Shown here: piece after piece, positions 46,177 through 50,400 of the stretch
Numbering within the stretch: position 1 is the first letter of the stretch
Layout: each line of letters starts with the position of its first letter
Position numbers and translations under genes: made by a program
Notes under the pieces: generated by a model
Database searches by the model: none
What the model was told of the DNA's origin: nothing
The model's input: the letters and a program-made list of their open reading frames with translations, nothing else
DNA from: Eledone cirrhosa
Taxonomy: Eukaryota
Assembly (NCBI GenBank): GCA_964016885.1
Contig: OZ024742.1
Coordinates: 278,318,001-278,382,000 of the forward strand
Direction: 5' to 3'
Length of the DNA stretch: 64,000 nt

Positions 46177-46216
46177 CACCTACGTACGTTTCGCCCAGTT
46201 GGGCTTCTCAAGGGTA
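46177..46216 (-). ncRNA. Type I hammerhead, U3-A8 core variant
   Basis: tacc c TTGAGAA gccc aact gggc GAAA cgtacg TA ggtg. Confidence 0.7.
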
Positions 46217-46506
46217 TAAAGAATCAAAAGTGTTCCCTATATTGCCCGGAAAGAGTTTTGGGGGTTAAATCCACATCAAGGTTCATTGCTCGCAAAAATA
46301 GCTTGTTTTGATTTTGCAGCAGGTCAAGGGAGGTAACTCTGGCCGGTGTTAGGGCAGTCTTTCCCGGACAATTTTTTTTTTTTTTTCGCCGCATCTGTTT
46401 GTCTGAGGCTGGGTCTGGTATGCAAGGATTCTTCCCTGGGTGTTATTTTGCAGCGCCTGCCCGCCGGGGTGTTAAGACTTGTTGCAGGGAGATCCGGTGT
46501 ACGGTT

Positions 46507-48486
46507 TCACTCCTCATCCTTAACACATCTGAAGAAGGATATTTTTAAGCGATGTGTCAAACTTATCGCTGTTTCAGCTCTGCTGTTGATGAGCTCGTGG
46601 GGTGCAGTTATGATGTGGTAGAGCTCCATGAGGCAAAGATCGCATTTCCTCTTGAAGTTGTACGGTGCAGCCCTACCGACAATCTCCCAGTGCGTGGAGA
46701 AGCTGATGTTTAAGTCCTTTAGTGATGTGATGTAGTCCGCGAGCGAAGTGGAGTGCCTTAGTTTTCTATTTGTGAAAGAGTGGAGATGTGTTCGAAACCT
46801 AATTTTGAACGGGCCGGAGGTAGCCCCTATATAATGTTTAACGCTATTGTGGCTAGTAATAGTGCATCTATATATAACCCTATCAGTCAAGCAGTATCCT
46901 CTAAGGAGGCAGCGTCCTCTGTCGCGGCAGTTGCAATTTCTGTCGCGGTTCCGTCTATTTCCCACGGTAAGGCTATCATTGTTGCTGCCTACGTTGTTAC
47001 CTACGCTACCGCAGCTGTCGTTAGCACCATTACAACCCACAGCACGCAGGGTGGTGCGATTGTTATTCCGCACGTCATGTCCTGCATGTTCTCCAGTCAT
47101 TTCGCGGTTATGCTGGTTGCGTCTACGGATGCCGTTGTCAACACTATTGGATGCTGCCAGGGAGTTGTTAAGGCCAATATAGTTATTGTCAGGTGTAAGT
47201 GCGTCTGTGTCGAGGTGCTGTGTCTTGGTGATCTTACTGTGGTTCGTTGTTCCTATGATGTCTGCTAGGTTAGGAGTAGTAGAGAAGGATATTTTTATAT
47301 TGTTCCTATTAAGAATTTTTCTATACCTTTGGTTGGGCGGGAAGTTCTTCTCTAAGGCTTCGAAAAACATCCGGTGTATGTTGGAGGCCACACTCCGAGA
47401 GTATGGGGGGGGGGCATAGTACGTTACGGTGGCGATTACGTGTCCTTGTACTTTTGCTACGGGTGGTTCCATCTAGGTGACCGCTCTTATGTGTGTTAAT
47501 GCGCAGTCACCCGTTCGGTGCCCCTTTCACTTTATGCTCGGGTGCACTCTTCCTACCTCTTCCATGTTTATGTACACGAAGATGTTGGTTGGAAGGCGTT
47601 GGTAGTAGGCCGTCGCCTTTGTTGGTTTTGTAATAGGGGAATAGTTCGAGTAATCTACAGTGTTCACCGTCGCCGGGGTCGTGATCTTTAGTGCGGTTAT
47701 CTATTCTATTATATCCGACTTCAACGAGGTCGCCGCGTAATCGGTTATAGGTATGGCTTACTATAACGTTCGTTTTATGAGGGGGGTGGTTTCTAGAGCT
47801 AGCGTTAGGGATGTAGGAAATTCCTCGGTTAAAGCCGATGCTTATCAAGGCCCTATTGTAGTAATCTGCCGCTTGGTTGAAGATATCCTCATTAGCGGAT
47901 AGCCTCAAGATTCTATGTGAGATACTATAGACTATGGAGTTGAGAATCTGCTTAGGGTGGTTGGAGGCATAATTAATATAAGAGAGGCACTCTCCAGGCT
48001 TATGGTATGGCTTGTATAAGCCCGTACTCAACTCCAGGGTCACGTCCAGGAAGTTGACAACCCTGTGGTTGAGGTCCATAGTTACGGATAGGCCGTATGA
48101 CTTGAAGAACCTGTGTATATGTTTGTTAAGGTTCTCTCTCCTACGGGGGCTATGGTTCCTAACGGTAAACAGGGCGTCGTCCCTATATACACCTCCTTGT
48201 AGGGCCGGTATCTCTTCCCTAAGCATATGTAGGAGGTATATCCCGACCAGGTCAGTTGCTTGCGCTGAGTCACTGGACCCCATCGTGACATCGAAGTTAT
48301 CAGGACGGTTGGTTCTGGTCCAGTGGGAGCCTTCGAACTGGATAATGGTTCTACGCGCCGCTAGAATTATGTCTATTTCTTTTTTAGTGAGGCTAGTGTT
48401 AGATCTAGCTAAGGTAAGTGCCTTATTTAAGAGTATGGGGGAGATAGAGGCGTAGTAACTATCTATATCAAACTGGATGAATTTCA
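46507..48486 (-). pseudogene. Penelope RT-GIY-YIG ORF, disrupted
   Basis: One in-frame TGA at 47507-47509 (the frame continues LRINTH...RNRHRNVL) and a frameshift at the G-run near 47405-47414. Confidence 0.88.
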
Positions 48487-48642
48487 TATATATATATATA
48501 TATATATATATACAGACACATACACACCTATATATATATATATGTATATATATATATATATATATATATATATATATATATATATATATATATATATATA
48601 TATATATATATATATATATATATATATATATATATATATATA

Positions 48643-50240
48643 TGAAGGGAATGAACACAAAGAGTTTAAAACGTAGTGGACTTATCAAGGGCATGGAAAG
48701 CAACATAATGATCAATATAGGAGCCAGGAGGGAATTCATGGTTAAATTAACATCATCATTCATTTTTCCCCTCTGTGTATGTGTTTTTATTATCACAGTG
48801 CAGGGGGAGTAACTCTGGCCGGTGTTCAAGCAATCAGTCCCATCTGGATTTTTATGCCTGTTCATATGCTGGTGTTTAGCATCTTTATGTTATGTGTGTT
48901 GTTTCACTAGTGCCAGTACAGGTCGGGTCTGGGGTGTACACTTATTATTTAGTGGATGTTTCTTCACTAATGTTTGTTCGAGTATGGTCTGCGGTGCACA
49001 TTTGGTTCACAGATGTTTGTTTATACTGCCTGGCCACCGGGGTGTTATGCTTCGGGCAAGGGGAGCCAGTTCGTAGTTTTCATGTCACAGTCGCCTCCCA
49101 GGCAAAATACCACGCCTGTACTCGGTGTTTGCAATTAATAACTGATTCTGCTCGGCTGTTTATGAGCTCGTAGGGTGTTCTTATGATGTAGTACAGCTCC
49201 ATGAGGCAGAGCTGGCATTTCCACCTGAAGTTGTAGGGTGCAGCCCTACTGACAATATCCCAGTGTGTGGAGAAGCTTATGTTGGCGTCTTGCAATGTGG
49301 TGACGTAGTTGGCAAGCGATGTGGAGTGCCTTAGTTTTTTGTTCCTGAAAGAGTGGAGTTGCGTTCTAAATCTCGTTTTAAACTGGCCAGAGGTGGCTCC
49401 TATATAGTGTTTAACTCCGCTATGGCTAGTTATGGTGCACCTATAAATAACCTTATCAGTCAGGCAGTTTCCCCTGAGAGGGCAGCCTCCCCTGTCACGA
49501 CAGTTGCATTTTCCGTCACGGTCGCTCCTAGTTCCTAAAGTAAAGCTATTACTATTGCTATCTATGTTGTTATCTATGTCTCTAACTCTGTCATTCGTAC
49601 TGTTATCTCTCAAGGCGTGCGGTGTTGTACCATTATTATTCCGCACGCCGCAGCCCGTTCTGCTGCCGGTGGGTGACGCGTGTAGATCGCCGATATATTC
49701 TCCAATCACGCTCTGGTTACGTGGGTTTCGTCTGCCGGGGCGGCCATCCACCCTATTTGGTGCTGTTAGGGGGATGTTAAGGTTATTAGTGTTGTTGTCA
49801 GGTCTAGATGTATCTGTGCTAAGGTGTAGTGTTTTGTTAATCTTACTGTGATTAGTGCTCCTATGATGTCAGCTAGATTGGGGGTGGTAGAGAAGGATAT
49901 TTTGATATTGTTCCTGTTAAGTATTTTTCTGTATTTTTGATTAGGTGGGAAATTTCTCGCCAAGACTTCGAAGAATATCCTCGGTACGACGGAGGCCACA
50001 CCTCGAGAGTAGGGGTGGGGTGGTGGTGGTGGGGTGTGTGTGTGTGTGGAACCATATGATATTACGGTGGCGTTTCTGCTTTACAGTGGTTTGGTACAGG
50101 TTGTGCTTCCTAGTTGACAGTATTTACGGTTGTTTCTGGTGTTGTAGCCGGTTATGCGTCCCCATTACCCTATGTTCAGTTGGGGCCGCCCCACCTCCGT
50201 ACTTTCTATGTGTGGCTAGACCGGGTTGTAGGGTGTTGGT
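48643..50240 (-). mobile_element. Penelope-like element copy 2 (linker, GIY-YIG and 3' UTR; diverged paralogue)
   Basis: KQKRHRNIIWF..NFPPNQKYRKILNRNNIKISFS..CNCRDRGGCPLRGNCLTDKVIYRCTITSHSGVKHYIGATSG..CQLC..CKHR; UTR motif gtaactctggccggtgtt shared with copy 1. Confidence 0.9.
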
Positions 50241-50242
50241 AA

Positions 50243-50400
50243 TATTATTTTGCTTTCCATGCCCATGATTATTCCATTCAGGGCGAAACGTACGTAGGCG
50301 CACTATTATATAAACATGTTTTAACGGTTGTAAACTCTTTGTATTCATTTCCTTTATAATCGCTCTGCTTATTTTTTCTCGCCCACTAAATATTGACGCC
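50243..50400 (+). mobile_element. Inverted pseudo-LTR at the 5' end of Penelope copy 2
   Basis: ttgctttccatgccc and taaactctttgt.ttcatt are inverted matches to 48644-48710. Confidence 0.8.
50260..50300 (+). ncRNA. Type I hammerhead, A3-U8 core variant
   Basis: tgcc c ATGATTA ttcc attca gggc GAAA cgtacg TA ggcg; first stem II pair mismatched. Confidence 0.55.

Follow-up and report, generated by a model that had tools for sequence, protein, structure and literature searches.

Two decayed Penelope-like retroelements (PLEs) lie side by side in the window, the whole 64,000-nucleotide stretch of the Eledone cirrhosa genome analyzed here (contig OZ024742.1, positions 278,318,001 to 278,382,000, forward strand), and both retain hammerhead ribozyme motifs. 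We focus on the pair between positions 3 and 8 of the hammerhead core, which is U3-A8 in the two elements, copies 1 and 2, and A3-U8 in the 5'-inverted piece attached to copy 2. A survey of public reads and a comparison with related elements point to U3-A8 as the state of the family and to A3-U8 as the state of one locus.

Both elements run on the minus strand in the order reverse transcriptase (RT), linker and C-terminal GIY-YIG endonuclease (Table 1), and their homologues have both domains. The copies begin downstream of the positions of the N-terminal RWK and DKT motifs, and the reading frame of copy 1 is disrupted between RT and linker. Copy 2 is shorter and shares 73% nucleotide identity with copy 1 over 886 aligned columns. 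Of 368 candidates for the RT part of copy 1, 71 are homologues at E<=0.001, the best of them with 56% identity; a homologue from Octopus bimaculoides has 43%. Searching with the endonuclease alone gave one candidate and no significant homologue, and a Pfam search of three open frames gave no match at E<=0.1 for the decayed Penelope frames and one sub-threshold, unrelated hit. The inverted piece at the 5' side of copy 2 is a usual arrangement in PLEs (PMC8557442, Fig. 2 legend).

Table 1. Features of the two Penelope-like copies, in window coordinates
Feature	Position	Strand	Description or basis
Copy 1, 5'-truncated Hydra-clade Penelope-like element (assigned by sequence)	45987..48485	-	RT (FDI motif onward), linker, GIY-YIG endonuclease, 3' untranslated region (UTR)
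Copy 1 hammerhead, complete, type I	46177..46216	-	core U3-A8 at 46211-46205, 4-bp stem II, palindromic stem III, A17 at 46181
Copy 1 linker CxCX5C and GIY-YIG endonuclease	46510..46947	-	alignment with homologues
Copy 1 RT fragment	47651..48487	-	homologue search
(TA)n tract separating copies 1 and 2	48486..48644		sequence; preferred Hydra target according to PMC8557442
Copy 2, 5'-truncated, frameshifted, second subfamily	48645..50241	-	sequence comparison
Copy 2 hammerhead, 5' half	48679..48693	-	core U3-A8 at 48688-48682, G10.1; 3' half deleted
Copy 2 linker CxCX5C and GIY-YIG endonuclease	49083..49520	-	CxxC and CxH around conserved E and N
8-nt palindrome TAATATTA	50240..50247		joins copy 2 to the inverted piece; read from the sequence
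5'-inverted piece of copy 2	50242..50505	+	3' UTR and downstream tail; terminates in (CT)n(TA)n
Inverted-piece hammerhead	50260..50300	+	core A3-U8 at 50265-50271, U10.1 opposite C11.1, palindromic stem III, A17 at 50296

Several features bear on the clade. The linker is of the CxCX5C rather than the CX2-5CxxC type, both copies aligning to the CNC-x5-C of the homologues; the endonuclease has no CCHH motif, as in neither copy are the GIY- and YIG-like strands separated by a pair of cysteines; CxxC is present in both copies and CxH in copy 2 only, its cysteine being lost in copy 1; and all outer ends of the two copies and the inverted piece sit in (TA)n. Since a CxCX5C linker, the absence of CCHH, CxxC/CxH and a (TA)n target are the traits given for the Hydra clade in section 11 of PMC8557442, the copies are identified, judging by sequence, as decayed Hydra-clade elements. 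The descriptions of the clade in that paper, Hydra-1_Obim included, share with the window copies the C-terminal GIY-YIG endonuclease, the linker, the missing CCHH and CxxC/CxH, and further the (TA)n target, a type I hammerhead in the 3' UTR and a 5'-inverted piece. Hydra-1_Obim nevertheless differs from the window copies in its endonuclease sequence, as judged by eye, and its hammerhead, with C3-G8 and a 7-bp stem II in the published material, is unlike that of the window family. The Octopus bimaculoides protein with 43% identity to the RT part (P0019), named 'GATA zinc finger domain-containing protein 14-like', is a fragment of such a retroelement, and its name is an apparent misannotation.

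The hammerhead cores read TTGAGAA in copy 1 and TTGATAA in the 3' UTR of copy 2, both on the minus strand, and ATGATTA on the plus strand of the inverted piece. All three had been recognized in a preliminary description of this DNA, which set the core of copy 1 one base off, at ~46206-46212. In copy 1 and the inverted piece the core leads into GAAA, a stem III formed by an 8-nt palindrome, A17 and a short strand of stem I. Both match the type I core pattern in full (N3 U4 G5 A6 N7 N8 A9, G12 A13 A14, A15.1-U16.1, H17, with 3 and 8 complementary), with U-A at 3-8 in the former and A-U in the latter. The 3' UTR of copy 2 lacks 46 nt that match 50282-50327 of the inverted piece and comprise G12-A14, stem III, the cleavage site and the 3' strand of stem I, confirming the deletion of the 3' half reported earlier. 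The stem I strands tacc/ggtg and tgcc/ggcg are likewise present as described, and so is the additional C that precedes the core. A feature absent from that description is that position 10.1 of the inverted piece, which faces C11.1, is U and not G.

A descriptor scan for hammerheads, run on the 3' regions of related loci and on shuffles, gave 47 matches in 80 related 3' regions compared with 0.1-0.2 per shuffled set, so the motifs exceed chance; in viral contigs the pattern had no match. Rfam, at its gathering score, reported no hammerhead in the whole window. Two more hammerhead-like motifs, at ~19439 and ~12613 (minus strand), have the canonical C3-G8 and belong to a different repeat family; stem II of the motif at ~12613 contains a 7-nt duplication, and this motif is located within an inverted repeat. 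Rfam overlooked these as well, so the test is insensitive here and its failure is not explained by the 3-8 pair alone. It had been argued that searches restricted to CUGANGA miss U3-A8 motifs, which is true, but PMC4209133 had already taken such motifs into account.

How unusual U3-A8 is can be seen from its relatives. In File S2 of PMC8557442 the 3-8 pair of the Hydra clade is C3-G8 in all 26 rows (25 families, with Hydra-1_Obim among them), in contrast to the U3-A8 pair and the additional C ahead of the core in the window family. We also analyzed the best 80 of 111 related metagenome loci; 57 extended 300 nt or more past the endonuclease, and a motif was obtained from 43. Among 44 primary motifs, 42 have C3-G8, one has U3-A8 (L044, ~2113) and one an A3·G8 mismatch (L024, ~1259); three secondary matches (two U·C, one G-C) in loci that already had a C3-G8 motif were excluded. 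With none of the 26 published rows and one of the 44 metagenome motifs, U3-A8 is rare in the clade, and L044, a single contig, could itself represent decay. In a careful tree of 44 rows, namely the two window copies and 42 metagenome loci with a motif, the window family and L044 fall on opposite sides of a 95/87 branch. Holding them together was not rejected by the approximately unbiased (AU) test (p 0.52), and on this ground we make no claim of independent U3-A8 origins.

The extra C offers a hint of how the change came about. Stem I abuts C3 directly in 41 of the 42 related C3-G8 motifs, which fits the extra C being a displaced C3: the old C3 would have been pushed out by an inserted U, and G8 would have changed to A afterwards. 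Alternatively, stem I is a 2-bp helix without a bulge. Insertions before position 3 are known from the 2a/2b variants quoted in PMC7151607.

Four of the seven public runs listed were aligned to 50200-50420 at 80% likeness. X1 and X2 consist of contigs from one sample, possibly, in the case of X1, the same sample as the window DNA, and X5 and X6 of restriction-site-associated DNA (RAD) reads from two other samples. Position 3 (50265) is T in 483.7 of 508.2 depth units in X1 (20 contigs) and 401.9 of 428.2 in X2 (23 contigs), as well as in 236/236 reads of X5 and 294/296 of X6. Similarly, position 8 (50270) is A in 483.7 of 508.2 (X1) and 424.1 of 428.2 (X2, 25 contigs) depth units and in 236/236 and 295/296 reads, respectively, so that T3 and A8 carry 94-99% of the contig depth across X1 and X2. 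No other letter reaches 3% at U4, G5, A6, A9 and 50281-50295, and N7, stem II and loop II are variable. Copy-1-type sequences align only from 50281 on, and the majorities of their loose ends (14 and 16 contigs, 365 and 387 reads; 24 of the 98 loose-end rows listed) have U3-A8 with G7. U3-A8 is thereby shown to be the majority state in both subfamilies. Being common to subfamilies whose open reading frames are 73% identical, it fits selection on the 3-8 pair in an ancestral active lineage, and selection in active master elements would have held it. To this extent the selection on ribozyme function proposed at the outset agrees with the data; its other half, A3-U8 as a second selected covariant, found no support.

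Two other loci with stem II variants appear within 50261-50280 and retain U3-A8, as deduced from matching read counts and not from linked reads; one apparently has an extra A after A9 and the other U10.1 opposite C11.1. At 50358 several contigs depart from the reference into (TA)n, and copy 2 stops at the matching place, which suggests a common 3' terminus, with some copies having a further 145-nt tail.

A3-U8 itself was found at one locus only. An X1 contig (depth 9.67) spans the inversion junction and the core and is identical to 50200-50279 (0 differences), which shows the allele to be real and no assembly slip. In X2 the remainder without A8 at 50270 amounts to 4.1, and the sole listed contig across the junction has a depth of 4.01. 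Since alignment favors sequences that resemble the reference, it would have inflated an A3-U8 subfamily and not lost it; still, ATGATTA occurs at no independent insertion site in the four runs, with 20-25 contigs over the core. Nor is A3-U8 present among the 44 primary motifs from the 80 related loci, with the threshold set low enough to detect the window's own A3-U8 motif (score 9.5). The expectation that ATGATTA recurs as a subfamily is thus contradicted: it is seen in this copy only, the outcome that the preliminary description itself had named as a refutation.

The history of the insertion is informative in this respect. Copy 2 and the inverted piece are one insertion, and the 3' UTR of copy 2 has U3-A8 and G10.1. 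Over 71 shared positions the two arms show 11 differences, and the inverted piece has further near-private changes at 50330 and 50402, where the majority letter holds 95-99% of the depth. If both arms stem from one template, the A3-U8 change arose during or after insertion, and selection on transposition would then have been ineffective on it. Confinement to one locus in four runs, the position in an inverted dead piece, U3-A8 in the 3' UTR of the same insertion and a destabilized stem II together speak against a second selected covariant. The three changes within 8 nt could be a single complex event; a micro-inversion, considered as an origin, was rejected as by eye it fails to turn TTGATA into ATGATT.

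Folding energies differ between the two complete motifs. Stem II has -0.8 kcal/mol in the inverted piece compared with -5.9 kcal/mol in copy 1, and stem III is favorable as a dimer in both (-11.8 versus -0.6 kcal/mol for the monomer in the inverted piece, -13.7 versus 0 kcal/mol in copy 1). Copy 1 combines a stable stem II with a weak stem I and a stem III that forms as dimer only. Free folding does not yield the three-way junction. Stem I of the family motif consists of two G-C and two G·U pairs behind the unpaired C, or of 2 bp only. At 2.3 (50261) no change reaches 3% in the contigs and the copy-1-type loose ends also have G, and at 1.3 (50299) U holds 69-84% of the contig depth; the majority 2.3/1.3 pair is G·U. 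With G near-universal at 2.3 and U the majority at 1.3, the A-U of copy 1 and the G-C of the inverted piece are single transitions from G·U. What had been read as covariation in stem I therefore comes down to two one-sided changes with no two-sided compensatory change, and that they preserve pairing is weak evidence.

The U10.1 of the inverted piece is not private to the A3-U8 locus, as it makes up ~15% of the other depth, with G at 10.1 in 55-72%. At 10.1/11.1 of the related C3-G8 motifs U·U is the commonest state (18/42) and U·C is absent (0/42), and the published consensus Penelope-15_HM has U·C. Mismatches at this place being common in Hydra motifs, we abandoned the idea that U10.1·C11.1 by itself marks an inactive ribozyme.

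Other hammerheads provide a frame for these results. U3-A8 had been called a recognized natural variant, and it is indeed published both in Penelope hammerheads (PMC4209133) and among natural ribozymes (PMC3088659). PMC4209133 counts ~1,300 U3-A8 motifs in Schistosoma PLEs, offers a dimer model and reports low activity in vitro. Cercyon of Schistosoma mansoni, described there, shares with the window family U3-A8, a pseudo-LTR hammerhead, a palindromic stem III and presumed dimer action; it belongs to another PLE family and host, its stem II is 7-8 bp long and its extra base follows A9, where the window family has a 4-bp stem II and the extra base before position 3. In the passages of PMC3088659 compared with the window, U3-A8 is named in several natural ribozymes and A3-U8 is not, U10.1-U11.1 is tolerated, and exchanged 3-8 pairs, U3-A8 included, are stated to be active in vitro. 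For the hammerhead of the Anolis Poseidon PLE (PAc), PMC11167929 reports that the 3-8 pair is required, that a double mutant partly rescues, and that cleavage is protein-assisted and dispensable for insertion in vitro. PAc is likewise a PLE hammerhead, but of another clade, with C3-G8 and in vitro data. We found no publication on an A3-U8 hammerhead, and only PMC8557442 joins Hydra PLEs, octopus and hammerheads, in a search that left most subscription journals outside.

We therefore hold it to be highly probable that the window contains decayed copies of a Hydra-clade family whose U3-A8 hammerhead is likely self-cleaving, and that A3-U8 is the state of one locus, likely produced by mutation during or after insertion without selection. 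The family hammerhead would likely cleave tandem element transcripts after A17; two copies may pair via the 8-nt stem III palindrome and be cleaved as a dimer, perhaps assisted by the element's protein. Several points weigh against this reading. The core is covered by only 20-25 contigs and by reads from 11-14 start places, Logan contigs lose rare variants, and the apparent conservation in aligned reads is partly forced by mapping. In X1, 14.8 of the remainder of 24.5 match no contig among the 16 of 323 pieces listed; most simply, they would come from an adjoining contig that overlaps at this locus. For one copy, the chance that 3 and 8 are both hit in a complementary way is 1.3e-4 to 5.9e-4 (4-8 private changes over 179 sites), rising to 0.06-0.3 only for an assumed 500 copies; for some pair among 11 to be doubly hit the chance is 1.4e-3 to 6e-3 per copy. 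Finally, with U·U common at 10.1/11.1 and U·C in one consensus, the U10.1·C11.1 mismatch alone is no proof of inactivity.

That the family motif does not cleave, and is instead vestigial or bound by a protein, is unlikely. Stem I is weak, PLE hammerheads cleave poorly alone according to PMC4209133, and insertion in vitro did not require cleavage in PMC11167929, but all remaining letters of the core and the complementary 3-8 pair persist between subfamilies of 73% identity, where N7 and loop II vary, and the U3-A8 exchange is among those reported active (PMC3088659). A small active subfamily selected for ribozyme function in the A3-U8 state is very unlikely. Both changes are complementary and on a known tertiary pair, with a per-copy chance of 1e-4 to 6e-4, 3-8 exchanges can be active in vitro (PMC3088659), and 14.8 depth units of X1 have no listed contig. 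Against these stand the lack of a second locus in four runs, an X2 remainder that equals the contig of the locus itself, 0/236 and at most 1-2/296 reads, the U3-A8 of the same insertion's 3' UTR, and the count of 0/44 primary motifs from 80 related loci and 0/26 Hydra rows in File S2; moreover, a path from U-A to A-U would require two transversions via a non-pairing state. We give equally little chance to a small lineage with a working A3-U8 hammerhead, reached from C3-G8 through U3-A8, whose other copies are too few for 20-25 contigs. Even less probable is that the host co-opted the single inverted copy and retained A3-U8 to cleave a host transcript: core, G12-A14 and stem III are intact, yet stem II is almost unstable, stem III requires a second copy in the same orientation, and the other complete motif, in copy 1, lies on the opposite strand. 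An assembly error, which three departures from the family majority within 8 nt might suggest, is largely refuted and barely credible, given the X1 contig identical over 50200-50279 and an X2 junction-spanning contig whose depth equals the U8 remainder.

Apart from the hammerhead, a second motif recurs in these elements. ATTGAGCAC and close variants occur in the 3' region of 13 of the 57 related loci with enough sequence (L010, L012, L022, L024, L031, L035, L040, L043, L044, L047, L048, L056 and L068), where 0.6 are expected from shuffles. In the window the motif lies at 50429-50437 (plus) and 46062-46054 (minus), ~120-130 nt past the cleavage site in both pieces, and the published Hydra-2_Amil consensus also has it close to its 3' end. 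The RT or the endonuclease may bind it as a conserved signal.

An A3-U8 ribozyme lineage is not borne out by a one-copy state in a dead insertion; were it true, a working lineage of this kind would be a natural third Watson-Crick state at the core tertiary pair. The new finding is a small one: a Hydra family in which U3-A8 is fixed and the core is preceded by an additional C. For the search of further examples, descriptors should permit U3-A8 and an extra base before position 3. A family of this kind is one more natural case in favor of the 3-8 tertiary pair and of selection acting on PLE hammerheads.

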